A DNA stretch of 63,599 bases, counting the filler, from Asterionella formosa (taxonomy: Eukaryota), in the NCBI GenBank assembly GCA_002256025.1. It is 6 parts of 6 records of this genome, joined end to end, with 100 filler letters (N's around TTAATTAATTAA, not from the genome) between each part and the next. Parts side by side here need not be neighbours in the genome. Positions count along the whole stretch, not along the records: positions 31,871 to 42,384 come from NKIB01009426.1; 5 more parts are not named here. The stretch is one strand, 5' to 3'. The position numbers were made by a program, and so were the translations under genes. Below, piece by piece: positions 8,882 through 62,148 of the stretch. A model generated the notes under the pieces. It did not search any database and was not told the origin of the DNA. It worked only from the letters and a program-made list of their open reading frames with translations. Each line of letters starts with the position of its first letter. The first letter of the stretch is position 1.

Positions 8882-9962
8882 CTACAGTATCTGGTGTGGC
8901 ACTGAACAAAATTAGTAGTAGTTCGAGGAAATATCCGGGAGGAACACAGTGTGTATTGAAGTATCAAGTCCCCTCAGTCTCAGTTCCAGCACTGCACTCT
9001 TCTTGCATTCCTTTTCAAAATGAACCGAAAAATGATGCAATCTAGCGGAAGGTCGTGAAGCTTGACGCAATACGACAAATCTACTATGGCAGTCTTGAAA
9101 AGTAACTGTTTGGTATACTTGTTTCGTTTTAGTCAACAGTCATAAATACTGCGGAGCATATGTAGAGTACATATTGTACTCTTTTGTGGAATAATCGACA
9201 TGAATTCTCATTCCTTGTCCGCATAGTTTTTATGTACCGGGATATTCATTTAGAGAGAACTATGATATTTTGATTTAATCCAGTGCCCGGCCTTTTCGTT
9301 TTTCCGCCGTGGTCACTAATGACCTTCTTGTTTCGACATCCAGTCACGAGAAGTAAGAATGCTACATTTTGTTATGGGTGATGAGGATTGACGCATCATT
9401 GCAAAGATTCCTAATGTGGGACAGATCGGCTTTTTTGTCCATATAAAACCCACCACTATTCTGTGAATACCCGCCCTATGTACAAATACCGATACATAGT
9501 TTTATAGAGTCTTCTTAGTATCTATGTTCATCGAACACGAGATCTAAGTACAGTAAGTTTGAAAGCCTTTACTAGCAAATGTACCGGTTTGTTTGGGACG
9601 GGCACTATAAGGAGCACAGCCAGTTGAATTTTCAACAGTCATCCAATACACCGGTAGCACCAAGTCAGCAGTAAAAATTTAGAAGATCGATATTACTGTC
9701 GGCAGAACGGTAGGTACAAGTCCAGGGTCTACGTCAGGTGTGAATTAATTACTCCATGCCACTCACAGTAGTTCTTTATTATGTCCATGTATTCTCCAAT
9801 CTTACTTCCAGGGTTGTTATAAGCCCTTCTGTGCATGCAAGTCCATCATTTACATACTACCTGGTACCAGTTACCAGTAAGCCAAGCCAATCTGTTATGT
9901 TTCCAGTCATAACATGTCACTGTGCATTTCAGTTGGTTTAGAATAGGCTCGTGCTACCAGTA

Positions 9963-12377: not shown

Positions 12378-12417
12378 GATCCTTTCATTGCATTTCCGAT
12401 TCCGATACCGGTACCTG

Positions 12418-12506
12418 CAAGTTGTGGTCATTTTGCTTCAACTAACATTTTGATTCTCGGATAAAGATAGCTAAATCTTTAGTTTCAGCAAAATTACGGC
12501 AACTAC
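12418..12506. mobile_element. MITE family A, copy 2
   Basis: CAAGTTGTGGTCATTTTGCT...AGCAAAATTACGGCAAC aligns end to end with copy 1 and is preceded by TACCGGTACCTG. Confidence 0.8.
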
Positions 12507-13224
12507 ATTTTTAGCCTCTTGCTGATGCGGTTGCATTTGATTGGCGGATCAGATCATTGATCCTTGATGCGAGCCATCTGGTACCAGGTCAATATTCTTT
12601 ACTAAGTACCTATATACATCTGTATATATCTGTCGACATCACTATTAGCCACGCACACGCATACCAGCAGTGTTCGTTCTATGGAGCATGATGTATATCT
12701 AACCGGTAGCTATATAGTATACAAATATTGATATTTTCTGTTTTCCACAATCATGCGTAATAAAAATGTTGTGGTACCTGGTAACCAAACACTCGTACCA
12801 GGTACTGTTTCGTCGTGTCGGACGAACGCAAGGCAAACGGCGATGTCAAGACTCGATGATGGCACAAAACACGACTCTCTCGATAGCATCGTGTTCGGGG
12901 AGCACCGTTAGTCAAACATGATATTCATGTATGAATAAAATCAATCATTTACTCATGGGCATAGCACCTGCCGAGCTCCCACAAAATAAACCGTCTCCTT
13001 TCATCGCTCACATTTTCTTAGACGGTTGGTCCAAACGACGAAAACCAGCAGGCGGCTACACACACACGTGTTTCCTTTGTACATTACAATCGCAACAATC
13101 AAAAACGAAAGATAACATCTGACTATATCACAACAAAAGCTTCCTATACTTCTCCCTCAATAGAGGCGCATTACACCTCCATAAAACTACAGCACAGCGA
13201 TACAACAACAAATACAACACGACG

Positions 13225-21248: not shown

Positions 21249-22208
21249 CCTGATCTTGTCATTGTCTATTGTTTGAAATGTAGTAATGATGTCATAAATT
21301 AATGAGGATTTTAAATGTTCATTACCTATGCTTGAAATGTTTAAATATTCGAATATTCATTGATAAGGTTGAACAAATGATAGAATATTTTCAAAAAATT
21401 AATGACGACTTCAAATGTAAACTAATAAAATTATTAGATGACAAACATTCAAACCCTCTTTGACCTGGCGGGATAGTATCATTGTCAAGTCGAAGCTGAA
21501 CCAAGTCTGTTTCCATGTAATGCTCACCTAACTCCTCCATCTTGTCCCATTGACATTGTCACTCTGGGCATGCAAAGTCACAGCATTCGCAGAAGATGCA
21601 ATTCCCACAGCCTGCTACTTCTGATTTGTCAAGGACACGATCAACACAAGTAGGGCATGGAACATGATTATATGGAAGAGGATTGGCATTCAATAGTAGG
21701 GGCGATCCAACAGAACTCATGGTTGATTGTTTGTTGTTCGACATTATTTTGTTGCTCAAAGGATGCCTAGTATACAATATGCTCGAGGTATATAACTAGA
21801 GTCTATACATGTGTTCTGGTGGGGAGTAAAATTATATCTAAATTGAGCAATGTAGATAAAACATTAACATCTTCATTCTTTTTGAAATGGAACTGTGCCA
21901 ATGTGGGGCCATTTTCTACTCAGTTTAAATATTCAAACAGGTACTTGCATCATGGGAATACACAGAAACAAATTCCCAGTTCCACGTTATTTTTACAACC
22001 CTAGCGATTTTTTCTTCAAACTAGGGTTACGCCGGGGCCGCGACTTTTTTTTGGCTGTTCCAAGGCGCCAGGAGAAAACCTATCCGGCCGCTTTGCCCGC
22101 CTGCCCCATCGAGGTGAGGTGCTTGCTGGTGATGTGGTCGTTGGCGGTCATGTGCATGTTGAGGAATGTAACAGGTGGTATGGTGCTACATAGGATACAT
22201 TCTTTGCT

Positions 22209-22241
22209 GGTACCTGGTACCTGGTACCAGGGTACCAGGTA
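22209..22241. repeat. (TACCWGG)n array
   Basis: GGTACCTGGTACCTGGTACCAGGGTACCAGGTA, with further copies at ~22265 and ~22395-22424. Confidence 0.9.
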
Positions 22242-25762: not shown

Positions 25763-25972
25763 TATACCGGTATATCAATTGCTTCACGGATTAGAGTGTC
25801 CTAATTTGTCCTAATATCACATGTATGGCATGAATTTACCGGTATATCAATTGCTTCACGGCTTAGAGTATCCTAATTTGTCCTAACATTACTGATATCG
25901 CATTTATTTATATCAATTGCTTCACGGATCAGAGCGTCCTAATTTGTCCTAATATTGCAGGTATTGCAATTT
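25763..25972. repeat. Tandem repeat, 3 x ~70 bp
   Basis: TATATCAATTGCTTCACGG..AGAG..TCCTAATTTGTCCTAA occurs three times. Confidence 0.9.
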
Positions 25973-26019
25973 AGAACCAACCTTGCCCCTAATGTACATG
26001 GTACCCTGGTACCTGCAGC

Positions 26020-26106
26020 CAAGTTGCGGTAATTGTGCTGAAACTAATAGTTTCGCTATCTTTATCTTATATTCAATTGTTTTTTAAGCCAAATGACCGC
26101 AACTTG
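26020..26106. mobile_element. MITE family A, copy 3 (opposite orientation)
   Basis: CAAGTTGCGGTAATT...AAATGACCGCAACTTG followed by CTG, adjacent to GGTACCCTGGTACC. Confidence 0.8.
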
Positions 26107-27014
26107 CTGGTATTTAAAGGGACTCTTTTGTAAACCCCCCCCCCCCATTTCTTTTGGTAGCCCGTAATAAACAGAAATAAATACCGGTAATATAACAAAA
26201 AACGACATCCTCTTTCTTGCTTCGAAACATACCAGTAAAAAGTGGGATAAATGTAAAGAAAGATGTGAAAAGAAATACCGGTATGCATTTAATGGTGCTG
26301 CTCCTCACAATGGTAAACATGTTAAACGCCAACTGCAAGCGCCAGAGATTCTTGATTTCGATGACCACGATTCCTCATATCACTATCAAATTATCATTTC
26401 ACCAATTTTTTTCATGAAAGACTATGGGCGAGAGAAAGACTCCGAAAAAACTTCTATGTAAAGGTAAATTCTTAAATTTTCCCATTCTGCTATGGTCCGC
26501 TCTTACTGGTTTGATGAAATCTAGTTTGAAAAGAATTCAGTACATAGAATCAAGAAATAGAAGAGGATGATGATAAATTGACGGGAAGATAAGAGGCCAA
26601 AGCTTTCAAATCATTCGCCCATTCTGCAGTTCAACAAATGTGGTGAAAAATTTAGAGTAGTAGAAATAAAGCTAAGATTTTAAGACACGGATAATGGGAT
26701 CATGACATTGACACTTTCGCTGATAGCGAGGACACCAGTCTAAATATACGATAATATACGTTGCAATAATGGTTTCAGTAGACTAATGAAACCAACAATA
26801 AAATGACATCGATTTTCTGATCGATTGAAAACATTAATCTCCAAACGAGCTTTGATGTTGGTGGTCTTCATAAGACCACCCAGCCTGCCAAATCGTTCAA
26901 TTATGAATGCCGCTTGCTGTGTACAGCGTTTGCCGAAAACATTTCATATTCTCGGCCTTTGCAACGATGAACGAATTTTTGTAACTTTCAATTGTGAAAT
27001 TGCAGGTAAACATT

Positions 27015-28883: not shown

Positions 28884-29819
28884 CGTTGGTGATCTAGTGT
28901 GTACATTACCTCCTCGATGATGTGTCTTTCCATAATGATCCTATCATTGTAACACAAGATATTCACTGATCACATAAAATTGCTACTGGCACTATGAAAC
29001 CTGGTACCAGGTACCGGAATACAACCAGTAATACTGACACCAGAACATTTTCATAAGCGACATGATCACACAAGGACGTTCTTCGCTACCGGTATTCTAC
29101 CGTTATTTTACCCTTGAGATAATCTAGTAATGGTATCTTACGGACCAGGGCACTTGGAGTACCGGGTACCTGGTACCAGGGTACCAGGTGCTATATTTTA
29201 TAAGGATACAAACGTATGATAACACGCATCAAGGAACAATTCAAATGCTTACTTGTCATGTATCTGTACTTGAATATATACATATATAAATTCCTTGCCA
29301 CGACCACCATAACAGAGCTAAATATATCAATGAAAACAGATATTTAATATCCAGAGAAGCTTTGAAAGACACAGTACAGCCATACAGGAGAGACGTGTTC
29401 GTACGTATTCATGGTTGACATTACTTGGTACGTCGTTTCCTCGTCGCCTTTCGACTATAAGGATTTCGTGTACCGTTACCCTGGTACCTGGTACTAGCCA
29501 TATAGCTGGTGACATGTACCAGGTACCAGTACCTTACATAAGGATGTGAAGGTCATATGTCACTGCATGCGTAGAGGAAGGATGCCATATTATCTACCGT
29601 ATGTAGCGGTAGAGTCTTATTCTAGTATGGAGTACTGGTACATGGTGTGCCTGGTATATCATTGATACATTTTTCCTTCCTCGCTTTTGTTCTCACAAAA
29701 AATGGGGATAGATCACTCTTGGTTTCGTCCACCATTTTACGCACGCATATCATAAGTACAGCTTTAGGCGCTCGCCACTAGATTTCACCACAAGGGAACA
29801 GCCACCAACCAGCATCACC

Positions 29820-32090: not shown

Positions 32091-32811
32091 TTGGTTCTTT
32101 TGACTGTCGATACTTCGTTTCTGTTTACGAAATTGTGAGCTGAGAACTTCAAGGCATTATCACCGGGTGTACTCTAGGACGGTCTTCGAAGGTATCGAAT
32201 TCCCATTTTCCCATACACCAGTACATAATGAAGTATGATATCGGTTCAGAGCTTGTTTCTAGCCTGTGAGCGGAAATAAATTGTTTGACAGAATTTCTAA
32301 GATTTTGTTATCGAGCGAAACTCTTCGAAGCGCGACGATCCTTGCTACTAATTTAGTGCTCACGGATGTCGCGAAATGAGTACATGGTACCTGTTACCAA
32401 TATATTTTTTGGTTGACCGAAAGCCCGGAAACTGCTTATGATAAATCACATTGTCAAAATGGAGATGACGATCGCCATTTTCGTCCTAGATAATAGTAAT
32501 TCATTATCCCCTTTTTCGGATAGCTATGCTCAATCATATCATTACTTAGCTCTAGAGTGTGAGCTACCAGGTACTATTGTAATGACTCATACCTAGTGAA
32601 ATCCAAAATTTTATATATTTAACGCAAAGACTCGATTCGGTTGAGTCAAAGCACGAGAAAACTACTACATAGGGAAATGTATATGCAAAAAATATATAAA
32701 AATAGTTTAAATTAGATAAATTTTGCTTTGCTGTACTGTTACCGACATTACGGTAGTCTTGTCTACTGGTAATGGCAATGCAATTGTTTCATGATGGCTC
32801 ATTTGCTATTG

Positions 32812-32845
32812 CTGGTACCTGGTACCTGGTACCTGGTACCTGGTA
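32812..32845. repeat. (TACCTGG)n array
   Basis: CTGGTACCTGGTACCTGGTACCTGGTACCTGGTA. Confidence 0.9.
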
Positions 32846-33683: not shown

Positions 33684-34065
33684 ATATTACATCTAAGCCG
33701 CGTATTATGTGAAGCGACCTTCACATAAATAAGCCTAGTTGATTTTGAATGAATCACATGAAGTAGTTGAATACACCAACATGCTTATTTGAATATATCT
33801 ATATATTATCTCAATACATCACATTAATTATTTGATCAGAGTATCATGCATGCATTCCTGATCATCACTATATTACATCTAAGCCGCATATTACGTAAGT
33901 GACCTTCACCTAAATAAGGCTACCGGTAGTTGATTTTTAATGGATCACATGAATAAGTTGAATAAATCAAAATGCTTACTTGAATATCTATATATCATCT
34001 GAATACATCACGTTAATTATTTGATCAGAGTATCATGCATGCATTCCTGATCATCACTATATTAC
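33684..34065. repeat. Tandem duplication, 2 x ~186-190 bp, followed by ~22-bp TTCACGTAATT repeats (34105-34250)
   Basis: ATATTACATCTAAGCCGC...GATCAGAGTATCATGCATGCATTCCTGATCATCACT starts at 33684 and again at 33870. Confidence 0.9.
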
Positions 34066-34984
34066 GTGATCACCTTCTCGTAATTATTTAAAAAAATTAA
34101 AACTCTTCACGTAATTATTTGAAATACTTCAATTAATTCTGTAATTTATTTCACATCGCCTTATAATTTTGTTCACGTAATTCTATAATATATTTCACAT
34201 AATGTTTTAAATTTGTTTACGTAATTCTGTAATTTTGTTCACGTAGTTTAAAGTACTATCAAATAATGTTGATAACAAATTCAACTACCGTTATTTCACA
34301 TTACATGGGAAACAAATCTCAATATGCAATCAAACAAAGCTGTTCTATCAGAATGGAATCTTCAGTCTTGAGAAGGCAGGCATTATGAGACGTCGGTAAG
34401 AACAGCATTGCAAGACGAAGAGAAGCCGTTCATTCAGAAGGGAAAAATTATTCACTCTTGAACAGGCATCATTGTACGAAGTTGCAACACACACTGGCTT
34501 CCTTCTTGTCCTTGAAATGACTTGCTTCTTCATTGACCTGCAAAGATTTACATAACAACAGCGTGTCAGTAATTCATATGATAGAACTAGCAACAGCAGA
34601 AAGCAACACACAGATGTGGTAGTATTCAACTGTTTCTTAGGGAAGTCGAATTGAAACAACAAACCGGCATCAGCCAGGCAGCACCACAACTCACCGATGC
34701 GTTCAAAAGAATGCTCCTGTTGTGAAATGGACGGCAAAAATGAAAAATAAATGTAGAAAACAATAATAGAACCATAGTAGTACAGTTACCTAGTACCGGT
34801 AGTACAAGGTTATCCCTGTCTTGGGCTTTCTTCATTTCCCAATACAAGGTCATAACTTCCAATTCAAGGTGTATTGCGTTTTTTTCTGTACTATTTCAGG
34901 TCCCAATACAAGGTGACAATAATTTTCAAATCAAGATGTCCCCTGTATTGAGCTTTGGCGGTATCTCAAGGAAACATCCAGCGC

Positions 34985-35100
34985 CACATGCGATATTCAC
35001 GATGAAATATATTCTCATGAAGAAGCTTTGTGACATGCTCATTCCAGTCAATTCGTTGATGCTCCCATTTTGGAATTCGCACTGGCTTCGACTTTTGTTC
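34985..35100 (-). mobile_element. Possible PIF/Harbinger (DDE_Tnp_4) transposase N-terminal fragment
   Basis: RIDWNEHVTKLLHENIFHREYRM resembles the F..xYRM helical N-terminus of Harbinger/ISL2EU transposases. No catalytic core follows. Confidence 0.45.
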
Positions 35101-38100
35101 ATATTCATCCAAAAATGATAATTTAACTGCTTCAATTAACAAAAAGCTCTGTTGTTCCGCTTCTTTATCAAGATTGTCAATGACATCCCAACTGTCAGGT
35201 TCTTCCGGTCGATTTGTCGTTGTCGTTACAGCAATGATAATGGTCAGACATATTGAATAATTGAAGCTCACATTGCAATTTTTTGTTGAGTCTGATGCAC
35301 ATGTTTGCAGAGTCATAAAGAAAACGGCTAACTGTTTTACCATTACAGAGATATATTTGTGAAATGTACCGGTATCTCTGTAAAGATTCATTTTTTTCTG
35401 AAGATACAACAAAAAATAATTTGTATATCTACAACACGATATATTATTGAGAAGTTATGAAGGAAGACAATATTCACTTGCCAGGAAAGTTCTCTTCCCC
35501 AGTGATTACGTTATGTCCCTGTTGGTAAAGGATGAAAATACTGATATATCATCAAATACTGATGCATCAAAATCTGATGAATCTGATCTTGATGATATAG
35601 ATTCAACCGATATACCCACTCATATGACATCCATTCTTATGAAACCCCAAAAAATTCAATTCACGGCAGAAAAAGATGACTGTGGTATTTGGTCCATTTC
35701 CGGAAGGAATAAACAATCAAAAACAGAACGAAAACGATCAGATGGGACAGTCTAATTTCGCCTATTCCACCCACACAACGACCACGGGAAAGCAGCGGTT
35801 AAGAACCTTGTAAACTCTGCCTTTAAGCGCAATAATGACAAAAATTCTATTGGAAGTATGTCTGTAGAGGTACTACTCAGGATCGATTTCTATTACCATG
35901 TTACTATTGTTTCCAAAGATGACAGTGCAAAAATTTTTAAGATGTAATCCAGTTTGAAACATAAAGGATATTACTAATCATCAAGAAACTAATTCCTGGT
36001 TTGATTGGGTTGAGGTGAATTGGGAAAGTCGGAATGGCAATTACTACACGACTGTACCAGCAAAACTACTTTTATGGGGAACGTCATTTACTCGGATGGA
36101 ACCGAATCACTCCTGGCATCTGTTTGTTCGTTGAGAAGCACCAAGAACATGACAGCCCATGATCGCATGTTTTTTGCTAAAGGAGATTATATTTGCGATG
36201 AGAATACTGGTTTAAGCGTTGTTGAGCATAACAACATACTTTCCACAGCGTTTGTAGTCCCTGCTTTACCGCCAGGTACAAACAGAAAATGTATGAGTTC
36301 AAGAGAAACCGTATCAGCCATGGAAAACACTGATTATTATATAGCATTACCACCACGAGATCAATGGAAATTGATTGGTTGGGATATTCATTTCAGTACA
36401 GAGGCAAAGTAACGATATTATCTTGCTTCACTTAAATTTAGAAAATACTCCGCTCAACATGGTGTGCATACTAGTTTGTTACGAACTCATTAGATACTTA
36501 TGTATGACTTATGTTTGTTCTCTTTTTTTCGAGTGCCTGATGATGAATATGAACTGTAATCATCTGCTGATTCTTCCTAAGATTTCCATAATTTCTTAAA
36601 ATCGTTGAAAACTCTATCATGTTGAACGCCATCCAGAAGGACACGGCTCACTCTCTGCATGGCCTCAGCAATAACCAAAGCATGTTCGAATTATTTGTCA
36701 AATTTCCTGGTTTCTTCATTATCATGCCAATGGAATGATTTTACAGGATGTTTAATCATTTCACTAAGATATGTCAGTTCAGTATCACTTAACGTGGGAG
36801 ATAAGACAAAATTAGGATTGAACTCCATTGCTGAAACTTTATCAACACATGAACCCACAATTTTTTCAAAACATATTCCATAACCGCGCCTTCAATTCCG
36901 AAATCTGTGGTATTTTCAGGATATGACCATCCAGTTCCATTACTTGCATTAAATTTCATTCCCAAACATTTATCCCAACCATCAATCATTAACCGAGCCT
37001 CACTTCGCTTCCCCATAAACACCGTTTCTCTACTATGATGTAACTGAACTAATAATTCCATAAACTTTACAATTTTAAAGGGACCACATGACCATTTACC
37101 ATCCTCGGTTGGTTGGAAAATCATTAAATCAGTATCTTTGGCCATAAAACATGTCAGGTGCGCTTTCCCTGACATCCACCGGCAATCTTGAACTGAGGTT
37201 CGCCATCAGTATAACCTCTGATCCTTGGTTTTTCACCCAATATTTTCAAAAATCTTTTGCGACGAAGTGATTTAGCTTTCTTCCTGTCTGATTTCCATTT
37301 GTCGAACTCTGTTTTCAACTTGACCACATTTTTTGATGGTATAATTTTTTTATCGATATCAAACCCTGGGCAAATTCGGTATTTACGTGCAATCTCGTGA
37401 ATGGTGCATTTCAAATGACTTTCCAAACACACTCCATGTTCAGGATCACGTACTTCTACTATGCCTACATTGAGATCAAAACAATATAAAACATAATATC
37501 TCATTGTCAATCAACTGTGTAGATTAAGACACAGAGAACACACGATGTCGATGTTCTCTACTTGGAATGACTAATTCCATCGGCTGGTTGGGAAAAATGC
37601 TTCCCAATTTTGGCGATGCTTTTCAAATGTGGCCGAAATAGTGCCAAGAAGCTTATTCCTCTTTTCCTCTGTATCAATACCGGTACTAACAACATTGTTA
37701 AATGTACAGGGATCTTTATAAACTCCCCAATGTCGGAGCACTACATCAACACCATTGGAGTCATCTTGACTACTGTTGCTGCTGTATGCAATTGCTCGAT
37801 ATTGAACAATTAATGGTGCTACCAGGTACCGGTACCAGGTATTCGACATTTTAATATTTTATACATATAATGCATACCGGTAAATATGTGTGAGACAGAA
37901 TACACTAGTATATAAAATAATAGTGTAAATGCATACCGGTAGGGCAATGAAGTCATGACATAAACTTTAGCAGGTCCTATTGCAAATCTTGCCAGTAGTA
38001 ACAAGAATTCTTAAAACAATGGGATAGTACATAACTAATAATGGTGTGATTGTCATTTCGAACCCACTTCTATTTATGATTCAAGTTAAGTTGCTATTTC

Positions 38101-47710: not shown

Positions 47711-47986
47711 CCGTTTGGAAGATACCGGGGTATTCTCCGAGCGCACGACCTGAACCGGGGTGAATGTGTGCCGGTAGGTACCTGGTAGCCTGCTTGTGCG
47801 CATCATAGATGATACCGGTAGATTTGTTTGCGTGATCATAATATCTATACAGGTGTAAATATTAGTCGACAGGTGGGTGGTACATACCGGGAACTATCAA
47901 ATTTCCGGTACTTTGCGGTCTTGAAATACACACAAAGGATGGTAAAGACGACAACACCTGGCACGTGGCTCTCTGTTCCGCGCAAG

Positions 47987-48072
47987 TGGTTGCGGTAATT
48001 GTCCTGAAAATAAAACTTTAGCCTTCTTTATCCGATATTAAATTGTTTATTTAAGCCGAATGACCGCAACCA
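47987..48072. mobile_element. MITE family A, copy 4 (diverged)
   Basis: TGGTTGCGGTAATT...AATGACCGCAACCA, with internal similarity to copy 3. Confidence 0.7.
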
Positions 48073-48376
48073 GCTGATGTGTAAGGTTTCTAGTAGGATC
48101 TGTTTTAACGTCAAATTACTGCACACCAGATAGGAGTACCTGGTACCAGCAGGTATGATCTTATGGATGCGATGACTCAATTTTCCTGCGTATCACATTA
48201 TATATCACCAAGTTGCAAATTGACCTGTCTCTCTATGCATCCAGGATACCGGTAGCCTAATAATTGCTTGATATCATCGAATACATGTTGAAATTTAAAA
48301 GGAAAACGAGAACGAAACAAACGTCCAATTGTTATAGCTGAGTGTTGAAGAAATATAGTTTAGCACCTATCAGCAG

Positions 48377-51665: not shown

Positions 51666-52408
51666 CTAAGTAAACGTGTCCCATTCCCGAATCCAGGTTT
51701 GAGGTCCGGATCCAATCTCCGGGTTCTGCGGCAGTCGAGTTGCGCTTTGCCGAGCCACTGTCGAGTCACGACGAATTATGTGAGATGAGCCATGGCTGGC
51801 ATGCGCGTCTCGCCCTGCCATTGTCGATCGAGATGTAAATGCCGGTGTGTTGTCCGGTGGGTGAAAGAAGGTGGTAGTTGTGATCATCTTTTGGCTGACA
51901 GTCTTCGTGAATTCCGCCACTTGCTTGCGAATGTAAATTAGAAATGCGTCGGATTTCCATCTTCCTATGAGCATCACCATGTAGTTTGGTACCCCAGAAA
52001 GTATCATTGCCATGGCCGCCGCACTGCGAATCGAATGTCGAATCGAATGTAGTCCAATGTCCAGTGGGTCATAACCAAGGTGGTGCTGTCCAAGCGTTGT
52101 AGCCAGTGTGCGAACTCTTTTTATCGCGGTCTCAGCTTTGAGTGTGTAAGTTTGTGTCCCTGACATGTAGGTGTTAATCGCCGAGGAGGTGTTGGTGCCT
52201 GGACTGTTCAGTATTTTGTTGACAATACAAGCCCCTTGGCGTACCGGGCACATGATGGGGTCCGAAGTGCGACTTAGGGTGATGGCTTCATCCTTTTCCC
52301 CATTCTTCTGATCGCGAAACGTGATGCAGATGATGTCGGCGAGATGATTGGTTGTGTGGTCATGGGTGATGTCAGTGCGGTCCTGAAAGAAGCGTAGATC
52401 CTGGACTC
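51666..52408 (-). mobile_element. Tyrosine recombinase (DIRS/Ngaro-like or Crypton-like element), C-terminal half, interrupted by a copia LTR
   Basis: Continuous frame ..ITFRDQKNGEKD..DPIMCPVR..DIGLHSIR(HSIR)SAAAMAM..GRWKSDAFLIYIRKQV, containing the catalytic HxxR, W and Y. Confidence 0.85.
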
Positions 52409-52995
52409 TGTTGAAATTGCGTCCCGAAGCACTCTATGCTTTCTTGTGTCCTGTAAGGACACGTCAGGGACCAAATAGGCTGTAGATATGAACAACGATG
52501 TCCGTAATCGATTGTAATCGTTCCTAAGAGTTTTAATAGAATTATGGGTTTTTACTGTTGGCGTAGATTGTTTTCAAATTCTCTGGTACCATATTCTTTC
52601 TTGATTCATTCGATTCAACATGTAGTAGGTAATTTATACCGGGATTTTCTTACCTAAAATAATTTCTCCAACACACTCCTGCTGGACATGGATGCTCACT
52701 TTGAATTCATAATTTGCTGACGAAAATGAATAAATTTCGTTCCAACCAGTGGTTTCGTCATGTAGTCTGCTAACATTGCATCCGATGGACAGTACTTAAT
52801 CTGTACTTCCTTTCTTTCAATAAGATCAGTAATATAAAAATACTTGATGTTGAAATGTCGCGTACGTTTTCCTGAACTTGCTTTTCCATTTGCTTCTAGC
52901 TTCATTGCGCTAGTGTTGTCACGGTAAATGACATTCGTAGTCACCTTGTGTCCTTGTGCTTCAATAAATAATTTCGTCCACAACACCTTTGATAT
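52409..52995 (-). mobile_element. Ty1/copia (CoDi-like) 3' end: RNase H (52696-52995), PPT, 265-bp 3' LTR (52409-52673)
   Basis: IYRDNTSA..KRTRHFNIKYFYI..MLADYMTKPL, then GCAGGAGTG, then TGTTGG...TCAACA on the minus strand. Confidence 0.9.
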
Positions 52996-54680: not shown

Positions 54681-54869
54681 TGAAGTATCTAACTAGAAGT
54701 AGTAGTATTTGTTGAATATATGAGCTAATTAATTAATTCTGATGTACACCTTGTTTCCTAAGTTGACATCAAAGTATACAATAGGTGTTAGTCGAGTTCT
54801 CTCATTATTGAGTTCTGATATATTTGATATAACCCTATATACATCTGTATCGATGTGCAAGATCGCTCA
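54681..54869 (-). mobile_element. Solo LTR of the gypsy family at 1-1248, with 5-bp TSD CCTGG
   Basis: The reverse complement aligns end to end with 1053-1248. CCTGG lies at 54676-54680 and 54870-54874. Confidence 0.92.
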
Positions 54870-54897: not shown

Positions 54898-55027
54898 TGA
54901 AGTATCTAACTAGAAGTACTAGTAGTATTTGTTGAATATATGAGCTTATTAATTAATCCTTGTGTGCAACTCGTTCTCCTAGTTTGACACTAAAGTATTC
55001 AATAGGTATTACCGGGTAGTCGAGTTA
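54898..55027 (-). mobile_element. Second, partial LTR of the same gypsy family
   Basis: TGAAGTATCTAACTAGAAGTA...TAGTCGAGTT, immediately preceded by TACCAGG. Confidence 0.88.
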
Positions 55028-58474: not shown

Positions 58475-60555
58475 TAAGGGGTTGCCCTTGTTATGTACTG
58501 GACCCCACTGTACAGAATGGTCATAAACTCCCTCGTTGGCAACCTAAATTTCGTTGTGCGATTTTATGGGAATCTCTCTTTCTCATAGTAGCAATGTCTC
58601 CCTAGTATTGAACCAAAAAACAGGTACCATTTCGCCTCAGTTTCACGTGGTTTTTGACGACTACTTTACCACTGTTATGTCCATCTCTGATTGTGATGAT
58701 CCTCCAGCTCACTGGGAAATATTATTTCATGAATCCCGGTTTCATACTTAATTTGATGAACATGAACATGTTTCCTTACATGGTGATTGGTTAACTTCCA
58801 GTGAACAAAATGATTTTCAACATCACAAACAGATGCAAGCAAAAATCTTTCCTTGCATGAATATCATAGCAGTACCTAAGGATGAATTGCCAACAAATCA
58901 GAGGGAGTTTCCTCTGCCCTCCCCCCCCTTACTGTGCGTTCCTTCACCTGCCCATAAAGAGCCTGCTGTTAGTACCACATCTAGTACCTCTGGCTCTGTG
59001 GTTGTTCAGAGCGCTCTCCCTACTACCTATATCCACCCAGTTGATGTTCAGGATGTTCCTATGGCTGCTGTTCATTATACTGAACCAGCAATTCCTGGCC
59101 TCCAACTCCACCTGTACACCCAACTTCTACTATTAGTATGAAACTAAATGTAATTTCTACATCTCGCCGTAGTACCAGGACAAACTTCGGTGTGTTTGGT
59201 ACTTATTATGTCCCTGAAGGCCATCTTGCCCATGTTTTCTTTCGCAATTGGTTGAAGACAGTGACACCCATGGCTTTGACTCCGATTTGGCCTACCTGGC
59301 TGCTGTTACAACAAATCCAACAATAGGTCTCTTGGATTGCCCACTTGTCTATGCTGCAATGGCACGTCGCAATGACCCAGATAATCCCAGATACCATGAA
59401 GCCATGGCTAGCATCGATCATGAATCTTTTAAAGCTGAGATGGTCACTGAGATCGTTGCTCTCACATCAAAGAAAACCTGGCCTTTAGTGACACGTCAAT
59501 CAGTTCAGGGTAAAAATATCTTACCTGGTATTTGGGCTTTCAAATGTAAGTTGTTTCCAGATGGTATTGTACGTAAATGCAAGGCTCGGTTTTGTGTACG
59601 CGTAGATCTGCAAGTTGAAGGAGTGGATTTCTTTGAGACATATGCTCCGGTTGTCAAATGGTACACAGTTTGTGCTTTACTGGTGATGTCAATTGTGTTA
59701 AACCTTGAGGCTCAGAAAATCGATTTTAGTAATGCCTTCTGTAAAGCGGATATTGATGAAGAGGTATATGTTGCTTGAAATGCCCAAAGATTTTGGTGAT
59801 CCCAGGGGGAGATGAGACATCATGGTACTTCGGTTGAATAAATAATTGTATGGAACAAAACAGGCACATAGGATTTGGTTCCTCAAATTGAAGGGCGGAA
59901 TGTCTCGAGCAACAGGGTTTCACACAGACAGTTATTTTTAGAACCTTGCCTTATTATTCACGCTGACATGGTCTACCTGGTGTATGTAGAGGATGATTCG
60001 ATTCTTATTGGTCGTGATAGGACCAAGATTGATGCTATGATTAAAATTTGGCTATTGACCTAGAATTGAGCGACTCAAGAGGTAGATCTAGCTGCTTTTC
60101 TGGGCATCCAAATTAACAAATTAACTGGAACCGGTTCACTTAAACTTACACAAGAGGGTCTGATTAAGCGTGTTCTTCAAGCTACTGGCCTCAAAGACTG
60201 TTTGGCTAGCTCTACTCCAGCCAATAAAGAAACTCTAGGAACAGATAAGGATGGTCTGCCTACAACTGAAGCATGGAACTACCGTCTATGGTGCCTTTGA
60301 CATTGACTGTTATTGTGACAGTGACATTGTTGGGCTCTTTGGTTCAGAAGACTATACTGATCCAGTGTGTTCTCGCTCTCGAACTGGCTAGGTCATGACT
60401 CTTGCTGGACGTCCCCTCCTCTGGTCTTTCTGCCAGTTGTCAGGACCTAATTCCTCTCTGTCAGATCATTCAAGAAGCATCTACAGACCTACACATTGGT
60501 AAAGGTTCAGCTGTTCGATCTTTTTCAAAGGTCTATGAAGATAATCTCTCCCAAG
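58475..60555 (+). mobile_element. Degenerate Ty1/copia (CoDi-like) pol: integrase C-terminus, RT, partial RNase H
   Basis: GCPCYVLDP..LPRWQP, GTISPQFHVVFDD, WAFKCK..KARFCVR..ETYAPVV, LVYVEDD, KVYEDN. Multiple stops and frameshifts. Confidence 0.9.
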
Positions 60556-60643: not shown

Positions 60644-60832
60644 TCTGAGAGTGACCATCATGTTGTCAGTTGATGAACATCATGAATGATAAACAGGTAA
60701 ATACGTGCGCGTTGGATGGATATGGAAATGGATATGGATATTATTATTATACAGGGTACTAGCTGGTACTATCTCATTCGTTCTGACCACACATCAGGTG
60801 ATGTACGTCTGAGGATTTAAGACCAGGTTTCA
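60644..60832. repeat. Interspersed repeat B, copy 1
   Basis: Shares TCTGAGAGTGACCATCATGTTGTCAG and CACACATCAGG..ATGTACGTCTGAGGATTTA..CCAGGTTTCA with 61886-62148. Confidence 0.85.
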
Positions 60833-61600
60833 GGCGCTGCACCAATTATCAATCTATGTCGCAAACAAAGTACTACATCTTACAATACAACTGAGGCTGA
60901 ATTAGATGCTGCTACCACATTGTCTAAACATGTTTTATGGCTCCTCCGCATCTATATGGAAGATATTTCTCTGCCATACCACGCCCCAGTCCCCATAGGT
61001 GAAGATAATTCTGCTGCCCAAATTATTGCTCATGCAGGGAAACTTACACGCAATGTTCGTCATATTGCCACTAAAATGCAGACTCTCCAAGAACATGTCC
61101 GTCATGCCCATGTATCATTTCACCGTTTTTCATCTACTTGCAATCTAGCTGATCACTTCACTAAGGCATTACCTTTTGCAACTTTGCGTGCACACTGCAT
61201 GACTATGATGGGATATGCTTTTATTGATCATCTTCATCAGGCCCTTGTTCATTCACTTGATTCCTTTCCACCCGTGCTCTGACAACTGCTGATTTCTTTC
61301 TCTTTTCTATCTCCATTCTTGATGAGATGGGGGGGGAGGGATGATATAAATCACTAGTTTGTCCATCATGTATTTCTGTATGTCAGTCACTGATGGTTGC
61401 CTCTACCCGTGTTGCTGTTCTTCTATGATTGTATCTAGTTACTTTACTATAATCACTCTTTTTAACATATCCCTTACAAACTCCTATTGAGCTTGTCAGG
61501 TTCGTTCATTGACTCACCCTACTCTCCTCCTCCTCCTCCTCCTCCTCCTCCTCCTTTGTCCTTGTTGTTGTTCACTATCCTATCCTCTTTCACAACAACA
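60833..61600 (+). mobile_element. Second Ty1/copia 3' end: RNase H (to 61282), PPT (~61323-61341), putative 3' LTR (61342-~61600)
   Basis: RKQ..TTEAELDA..IGEDNSAA..RHIATK..NLADHFTKAL, then GAGATGGGGGGGGAGGGA, then TGAT...AACA. The LTR contains a (CTC)n microsatellite. Confidence 0.8.
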
Positions 61601-61885: not shown

Positions 61886-62148
61886 TCTGAGAGTGACCAT
61901 CATGTTGTCAGGAACCTGGTACCTGGTACCTGGTACCTGGTACCAGGTACCCTGTATAATACAAGTAATAATATCCATATGTATCCATAATATCCATCCA
62001 ACCCGCACGTATCTACCAATACCAGTTTATCATTTATGCAGACACTGTATATCATGTTCATCTATTGGTACCTGGCACTAAATGGTACTCCTACTTTCTC
62101 ATTTCACACATCAGGCTATGTACGTCTGAGGATTTAGGCCAGGTTTCA
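61886..62148. repeat. Interspersed repeat B, copy 2, with inverted core and (TACCWGG)5 array (61914-61950)
   Basis: Same flanks as 60644-60832. The core 61947-62062 matches the reverse complement of 60670-60759. Confidence 0.85.

Follow-up and report, generated by a model that had tools for sequence, protein, structure and literature searches.

TA-bounded CCGG and CCWGG words in the genome of the diatom Asterionella formosa: probable excision scars of TA-targeting transposons

About 55,000 short words bounded by TA, of the CCGG and CCWGG types, are distributed over the 68.4-Mb assembly of Asterionella formosa. With a probability of about 0.75, these words are excision scars of TA-targeting transposons of the IS630-Tc1-mariner type, supplied by two sources, with re-use of scars building arrays. 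Directly seen were the enrichment of the words, their gain at TA, elements with matching ends, a match of the flanking bases, and one insertion into an existing unit.

Abundance and distribution of the words

The window is the whole stretch of DNA analysed (63,599 nucleotides, filler included, from six scaffolds of assembly GCA_002256025.1); positions refer to it unless a locus (L number) is given. In the whole genome, TACCGGTA occurs 28,528 times (reversed control, 1,718) and TACCWGGTA 26,886 times (reversed control, 902), and 1,141 triple chains of CCWGG units are found, with none for the control. Relative to an order-2 Markov expectation, the window holds 13 copies of TACCAGGTA (0.26 expected), 22 of TACCTGGTA (0.27), 26 of TACCGGTA (0.51) and two of TACCGGGTA (0.09); both forms of TACCWGGTA together number 35, with about 0.5 expected. 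The motif group is present on all six scaffolds, TACCGGTA alone being missing from scaffold 1.

A motif-blind sample of 242 kb was composed of 18 stretches from four large contigs plus the window. The TA-bounded cores in this sample, with expected numbers in brackets, were CCGG, 90 (4.5); CCWGG, 85 (2.7); CCAG/CTGG, 52 (12); CCSGG, 12 (1.1); CCAGGG, 10 (0.5); CCG, 28 (15); and CCATGG, 1 (0.6). Long frames (ATG-started, at least 300 aa) make up 68 kb of the sample and contain two CCGG words and one CCWGG word (three of 175), and the remaining 174 kb contain 88 and 84; the words are 17- to 32-fold rarer inside long ORFs, and cluster near genes. The preliminary description had the words pervading non-coding DNA and named a Markov count, split by coding status, as the check; the excess over the expectation in the window and over the controls genome-wide, and the depletion in long ORFs, bear it out. 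Sites 25765 and 26276 are bridged gap-free by contigs of an independent run from another study (X6), and the words are therefore not an assembly artefact; contigs from other runs carry 12-13 gap letters across some arrays.

The excess words total about 0.34 Mb, or 0.5% of the assembly. For one-mismatch variants, the surplus over expectation is about 1.1 times the exact count for CCGG and about 0.7 times for CCWGG; CpG transitions are the commonest variant among decayed words, and A/T substitutions at other word positions amount to a few per 85. The pattern would be expected from prolonged steady accumulation and neutral decay, with no burst; on the steady-gain reading, approximately one scar would be fixed per hundred substitutions. 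Given this small share and slow build-up, the earlier phrase that intergenic DNA is being rewritten is too strong.

Gain of words at TA sites

Filled sites (with a word) and empty sites (plain TA) were compared between paralogous copies as follows; a strand is given where one was assigned.

33688..34613, plus strand: end of a high-copy repeat that hosts the pair 33736/33921, starting TA-CATC (common left boundary, extent of homology)
33736..33737: plain TA at the corresponding place of the first copy (alignment of copies)
33921..33928: filled site TA-CCGG-TA in the second copy, six bases longer than 33736 and than 12 of 15 copies
55010..55018: TA-CCGGG-TA, empty at 54789 and in further repeat copies (paralogue alignment)
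25765..25844: two filled TA-CCGG-TA sites in a tandem of about 70 bp, third unit (25909) empty; 25765 bridged by the independent run
61960..61967: TA-CAAG-TA; an inverted paralogue around 60745 has a plain TA (single diverged pair)
32565..32573: TA-CCAGG-TA, empty in paralogue L002 (paralogue alignment)

The first 186 bp of the host repeat at 33688 are tandemly duplicated (33690 and 33876), and 564 candidate copies exist genome-wide, of which 40 were scored; a coding clue to the class of this repeat was looked for and none was found. The pair 33736/33921, proposed from the window alone, was confirmed by alignment to paralogous copies. Among 15 aligned copies the 33921-type position is empty in 12 and filled in three; these are the top-scoring copies, some of them near duplicates, and merge to 3 against 4 distinct contexts. 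The pair 54789/55010, likewise proposed earlier, also held: the copies are adjacent repeats of about 220 bp, and further empty copies occur near 1138, in L090 and in L047. For the tandem of about 70 bp, the empty unit at 25909 stands as described, but two of the three units are filled (25765 and 25837), which leaves the pair unpolarised. The contrast of TACAAGTA at 61960 with a plain TA was seen, in one pair of 79% identity. For CCWGG, where no empty/filled pair had been seen earlier, the site at 32565, a plain TA in L002, supplies one.

An all-against-all indel survey of 184 own-genome loci and the window, with clean 14-base flanks required, yielded 2,005 indel clusters. TA-anchored events comprised 15 of CCGG, five of CCG, three of CCWGG, and one each of CCATGG and CCA, and, in other classes, 55 of C/G and 16 of GC. 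Polarity was called only where at least three distinct copies exist, the minority allele being taken as derived. The long allele was the minority in 11 of 12 CCGG, 4 of 4 CCG, 1 of 1 CCWGG and 1 of 1 CCATGG cases, in agreement with the proposed insertion at plain TA, and in 45 of 47 cases of TA-C/G-TA and 10 of 14 of TA-GC-TA. CCWGG gave three indel pairs, one of them polarised, against 15 for CCGG, despite equal abundance of the two words. By paralogue comparison, words appear as whole insertions within transposon copies, and, as in a footprint, a duplicated TA bounds the word where the ancestral site carries one TA.

The short classes TA-C/G-TA and TA-GC-TA are also gained at TA (e.g. 54917, 55278 and L100:2080), and TAGCTA was counted 98 times where 35.5 were expected. 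A family with G-starting TIRs as their source did not turn up in the roughly 1% of the genome that was read. Three- and four-base indels were unusually common relative to two-base indels (421, 216 and 139).

Elements with CCG ends

Matches to PF03184 (DDE_1) are found at 93 places in the genome; the Tc1-type profile PF13358 had no match among 16 candidates. Full elements flanked by TA on both sides were recovered for three families, A (ends CCGTAAAACC), B (ends CCGTATACTT) and C (ends CAGTGAAACC). Full copies of A and B have CCGT ends with TA on either side, and ends of the A/B type number 473 genome-wide (control, 67). Family A is 2.46 kb long, with copies 99.5-100% identical, short TIRs and, as its target-site duplication (TSD), TA (L033, L038, L058); its open 421-aa frame matches PF03184 with 77.6 bits and carries a DD35D triad (D321 to D357), and its BrkDBD match is weak (16.8 bits, below the cut-off of 23.4). 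By its sequence features, family A appears Passer-like. Both A and B have an additional frame, about 120-145 aa long, encoded on the other strand from the transposase; these frames are mutually related (L033:781-1215, plus strand, with a counterpart in L036), and the copy in A has no Pfam match.

The preliminary description had named TA-flanked TIR elements and an IS630-Tc1-mariner transposase as things to look for. Elements starting with CCG and with CCA, with DDE transposases, were indeed found; the CCG sources turned out to be of the pogo type, and the PF13358 profile matched none of the candidates. The end bases of these resident elements with TA TSDs make up the cores of the words, as would be expected of footprints.

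Elements with CCA ends

A TIR scan detected a 746-bp MITE with CCAG ends, a member of a group designated clade D, for which the genome gave 506 candidates, 214 exact ends and 152 protein matches. Longer copies (2.9 and 3.7 kb) have TA on both sides and broken transposase frames. CCA ends of the clade type number 850 (control, 47), and CCG-starting ends of the D type number 10 (control, 40). A possible lone clade D end, with one mismatch to the clade pattern, lies at 9955.

An open 779-aa frame lies beside a clade D end in L170, with D310, D459 and D497; the 37 residues between the latter two give DD37D. In A2 (clade D), D247, D396 and D434 are invariant or nearly so. None of the clade D proteins scanned had a Pfam match above cut-off, so that the clade is missed by standard annotation; DDE_1 was absent in 3 + 27 proteins, DDE_3 gave no match in the proteins scanned, and HTH_Tnp_Tc5 was seen below cut-off in 3 of 27 relatives. 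The protein has 273 database relatives and 1,494 clusters at E 1e-30, and the closest clusters with a name in the atlas, at 0.86-0.88, hold DDE_1 proteins and serve as leads only. A2 gave no match in a sequence search of the PDB, and none in a profile comparison with family A. The structure model (pLDDT 86.8) has Mos1, SETMAR and Sleeping Beauty as its top structural matches (Mos1: Z 12.7, rmsd 3.2, 195 residues aligned; best by Foldseek, E 9.9e-4), and CENP-B follows with Z 5.8. The predicted RNase H-like DD(D/E) fold, the TIRs and the TA TSD place clade D in the IS630-Tc1-mariner group.

Among 79 metagenome loci with relatives of the clade, most callable ends read TA-CCA(G/C) and a few CCGG or CCGA; G precedes TA in 23 of 36 CCA ends. 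Scar type set against end type across these taxa gave 5 and 3 versus 0 and 3, counts too small for a comparison.

A further candidate source of CCWGG is family E, of which one copy is listed here.

26011..26112: family E, decayed inverted-repeat element of about 100 bp with CCAG/CCTG ends (high depth in run contigs)

Additional copies lie at 1272-1368, 12414-12510 and 47986-48076, often beside arrays; 16 copies, the four in the window included, were found in about 790 kb. The copy in L059 has one CCAG and one CCTG end. TA is kept at 6 of 17 ends, and G precedes TA in 4 of 6 intact ends.

Flanking bases of ends and words

The dinucleotide GG precedes 7% of all TA. It precedes TA at 66% of 70 clade D ends, and at 51% when the count is restricted to the 47 ends clear of any unit; the D-end flanks derive from loci fetched via D searches, partly array-selected, and are not a random sample. 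Isolated CCWGG words have GG in 33% of 76 flanks and isolated CCGG words in 6% of 154 (Fisher p about 2e-7), compared with 11% of 19 family A ends and none of 11 family B ends. At the third base outwards, A is the most frequent letter for A/B ends and CCGG, and T for D ends and CCWGG. The flank match thus pairs CCGG with the CCG families and CCWGG with clade D; this difference in flanks between the words calls for two or more unrelated element groups and disfavours the single very active family proposed earlier for both words. The CCAGGG-type words have GG in 40% of 10 flanks and CCAG words in 6% of 94. CCAG/CTGG was considered as a clade D scar and rejected: its flanks track CCGG, and CpG decay of CCGG is the simpler origin.

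Complete units are abutted by 23 of 70 D ends, by none of 39 A/B/C ends, and by 251 of 14,555 (1.7%) in the background. A D MITE in L098 occupies the TA of a TA-CCAGGG-TA unit; L014, L042 and L045 have this unit free of the MITE. Five D-to-D junctions have a TA or a single unit in common, and in L186, which comes from another data set, three units are followed by an element, one unit and a further end. A search of 179 end flanks, over about 1 Mb of loci, gave no site where one copy has the element and another the scar. Scars outnumber recognisable intact-ended elements by about 65- to 130-fold, where the element counts are lower bounds owing to exact search patterns and collapsed repeats.

Nested insertions were also observed (L051:1944-5285, L103 and L014): family A lies in a CCAG-ended element as well as in a D MITE, family C in a D MITE, and a D MITE in family C.

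Arrays of units

The following arrays were located in the window.

22211..22241: mixed array CCTGG, CCTGG, CCAGGG, CCAGG
29160..29188: mixed array CCGGG, CCTGG, CCAGGG, then a partial unit
32816..32845: four CCTGG units joined by TA; one unit in paralogue L002
37820..37841: mixed array CCAGG, CCGG, CCAGG
61920..61949: array of three CCTGG, then CCAGG

In the 242-kb sample, 47 of 85 CCWGG units stand in chains, compared with 13 of 90 CCGG units. The A and T orientations are mixed in 31 of 50 trimers (hand count, first 50 of 1,141) and in 25 of 72 dimers; slippage cannot be the source of those mixed junctions. Identical neighbours occur more often than expected (47 of 72 dimers, p 0.013), and slippage therefore contributes as well, perhaps accounting for about one quarter of array junctions. 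Array cores mix 4, 5 and 6 bp, and G runs vary in length (CCAGGG, CCAGGGG). A T-before-A polarity was considered and set aside as weak (trimers, 19 against 8, p 0.05 with overlapping sites; dimers, 16 against 9, p 0.23).

Proposed mechanism

The words would have originated by excision, from ends with 3-nt overhangs. Overhangs of three bases at the 3' end are known from Mos1 and Sleeping Beauty, and they would explain the word set found here. The CCG ends of pogo families A and B, when joined through CG (or when two CC ends are filled), would give TA-CCGG-TA, scattered singly; full overlap with a mismatch would give CCG/CGG, and a one-base overlap CCSGG. The CCA ends of clade D, meeting by one base, would give TA-CC(A/T)GG-TA and, by rare fill-in, CCATGG. 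The earlier proposal that joining of 3-nt ends yields the word set agrees with the words counted: CCGG, CCG/CGG and CCSGG from CCG, and CCWGG, rarely CCATGG, from CCA. A 5-bp CCWGG scar requires either that the ends overlap by one base (A:A) or that a base is added; two-base overhangs, plus an extra base for CCWGG, are a possible alternative.

The target of clade D is predicted to be (T)GG-TA-CC(A). A CCWGG scar would provide half of this target on each side and paired scars the whole, so later D insertions and excisions at scar TAs would produce mixed arrays, with slippage supplying some identical units. The resemblance of the CCWGG scar to the clade D target would explain why D ends abut units and why CCWGG units chain. 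We lean, by a modest degree, towards the specific reading that a so far unclassified diatom DD37D clade leaves a 5-bp scar equal to its own preferred target and so grows its own landing pads.

Other origins were considered and set aside. A 4-nt overhang (CCAG pairing) for CCWGG disagrees with the D-type ends, about half of which read CCAC (fourth base 49 C and 43 G, hand count of 100 listed of 850), and the words expected from CCAC ends on this model are not enriched. A longer TSD (GTAC or GGTACC) disagrees with a nearly fixed inner CC, a variable outer GG, and empty sites that hold only TA. A restriction-site or fill-in origin could, by reasoning, not convert TA to TACCGGTA.

Alternative explanations

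Arrays might have grown by 7-bp slippage alone from single scars, with elements adjoining them through a common sequence preference. The array at 32816, with four identical units where L002 has one, the surplus of like neighbours (47 of 72) and the variable G runs agree with this; we nevertheless consider it unlikely, because A and T are mixed in 25 of 72 dimers and 31 of 50 listed trimers while substitutions elsewhere are a few per 85, because 4-, 5- and 6-bp cores are mixed, and because an element lies within a pre-existing unit in L098. It is quite unlikely that CCWGG stems mainly from the small family E, by A:T pairing of CCA and CCT ends: the 16 copies in about 790 kb are old and decayed, 6 of 17 ends keep TA, and no transposase is known, whereas clade D combines some 800 intact ends with the flank bias. 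The CCAG and CCTG ends of the L059 copy, a G preceding TA at 4 of the 6 intact ends, and the run contigs that often join its end to arrays speak for family E. One family behind both CCGG and CCWGG is very improbable: trimming of one base from CCA ends would yield CC+GG, and CCGG or CCGA ends occur in distant metagenome relatives of clade D, but isolated CCGG lacks the GG-TA-CC bias (6% against 33%), and the 10 CCG-starting D-type ends stay under the control of 40.

Two further explanations dispense with excision. A host repair or replication process might insert short TA-bounded words at TA independently of elements, as the frequent gains of TA-C/G-TA and TA-GC-TA with the same polarity (45 of 47 and 10 of 14), the lack of a GC source and of an element-versus-scar site in the loci searched, and the surplus of scars over elements would suggest. 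Such a process is improbable: it offers no reason why the two main words should repeat the terminal letters of the two TA-flanked groups that were found to be most abundant, nor why each word should have the flank bias of its matching group. There is, finally, a bare chance that the words are palindromic regulatory (binding) sites selected in promoters; their palindromic form, their 17- to 32-fold lower frequency in long ORFs and their position near genes fit this, but they occur as whole insertions inside transposon copies and decay in a neutral-like manner with CpG transitions first. Later recruitment of some word sites for regulation is possible. We thus retain excision scars from two sources as the preferred reading.

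Comparison with known systems

Transposon excision footprints are textbook knowledge; the scar of Sleeping Beauty (SB) is TA-C(A/T)G-TA, with a central base that is ambiguous after mismatch repair. As here, the duplicated TA of Tc1/mariner footprints flanks a few terminal element bases; unlike in reports of such footprints, scars are here fixed by the tens of thousands. The maT group (Tc1/mariner), compared by description only, agrees with clade D in its DD37D spacing. Families A and B differ from Passer by the extra opposite-strand frame.

Tc1/mariner footprints measure 2-4 bp and those of ZB 0-3 bp, compared with the dominant 5-bp class here; ZB and SB favour AT-rich palindromic targets, which their scars do not recreate, whereas the proposed clade D scar would recreate GG-TA-CC (PMC7913693). 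Passer excision leaves 0-4 bp, a range that covers CCGG and excludes the 5-bp CCWGG (PMC9976928). On the pogo family definitions (PMC7386202, PMC7325037), family A resembles Passer in DDE_1, DD35D, 421 aa, short TIRs and the TA TSD, and of the Passer DNA-binding motifs (BrkDBD and/or HTH_Tnp_Tc5) it shows a BrkDBD match below cut-off (PMC9976928, PMC7386202). Fot-like elements have been reported from stramenopiles, and the Fot/Fot-like spacing is DD35D, rarely DD36D, with DDE_1 and HTH_psq/HTH_Tnp_Tc5 domains (PMC7386202); clade D resembles them in the triad context, with HTH_Tnp_Tc5 below cut-off in 3 of 27 relatives, but differs in DD37D, in the absence of DDE_1 from 30 proteins and in giving no match to the family A profile. 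By its spacing, clade D falls outside the Fot-like definition. A Stowaway MITE of Triticeae reinserted at the TA of an earlier footprint in one intron; natural TA-bounded footprints made of TIR fragments, with a later element at the footprint TA, are common to both systems, and the report gives no scar-matching target preference, arrays or genome-wide count (PMC1925063). Within the literature searched, where most subscription papers, figures and supplements were outside reach, no report was found of genome-wide scars in diatoms or of arrays in which scar equals target.

Other repeats in the window and loci

TA-flanked elements with CTTG ends occur at L144:166-1543 and L045:14-1167, and could be the origin of TA-CAAG-TA (61960) and of one TA-CTAG-TA indel. 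A TIR family starting AGGTTCC after TTA was seen at L060:4995-6181, L095:499-960 and L137:5540-6694; it may target TTAA. The host repeat at 33688 contains 22-bp tandem units (34075-34245), whose number differs among copies. Broken frames at 34348-35454 (minus strand), with no Pfam match for 34969-35454, resemble Harbinger when judged by eye. At 59218-59778 lies a Copia-type reverse transcriptase piece (PF07727, 44.7 bits); 60821-61282 probably contains an RNase H piece from a decayed retrotransposon. A frame at 51666-52433 (minus strand) has no Pfam match and ends in what we take, by eye, to be a tyrosine-recombinase-like motif. A high-depth repeat extends over 21249-22125; from 22125, run contigs enter tRNA-like sequence, perhaps the head of a SINE.

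Implications

Past excisions can seldom be seen in a genome; in this one, the scars are countable, and their flanks allow them to be attributed to families. The counts (about 65-130 scars per recognisable element) give a handle on lifetime jumps per copy, and the scars inform on break repair in diatoms. They would represent a mutation class that adds about one insertion per hundred substitutions. Among the vectors described in the cited papers, a preference for G/C-flanked TA is unusual. A scar that equals the target would steer the element into already disturbed non-coding spots and make arrays without slippage, and, if this is true, it would be a transposase-driven route to microsatellite-like arrays. 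Together with the pogo scars and the C/G and GC classes, excision scars would then be a leading source of small insertions, and the genome of A. formosa would hold a readable log of past jumps, by family.
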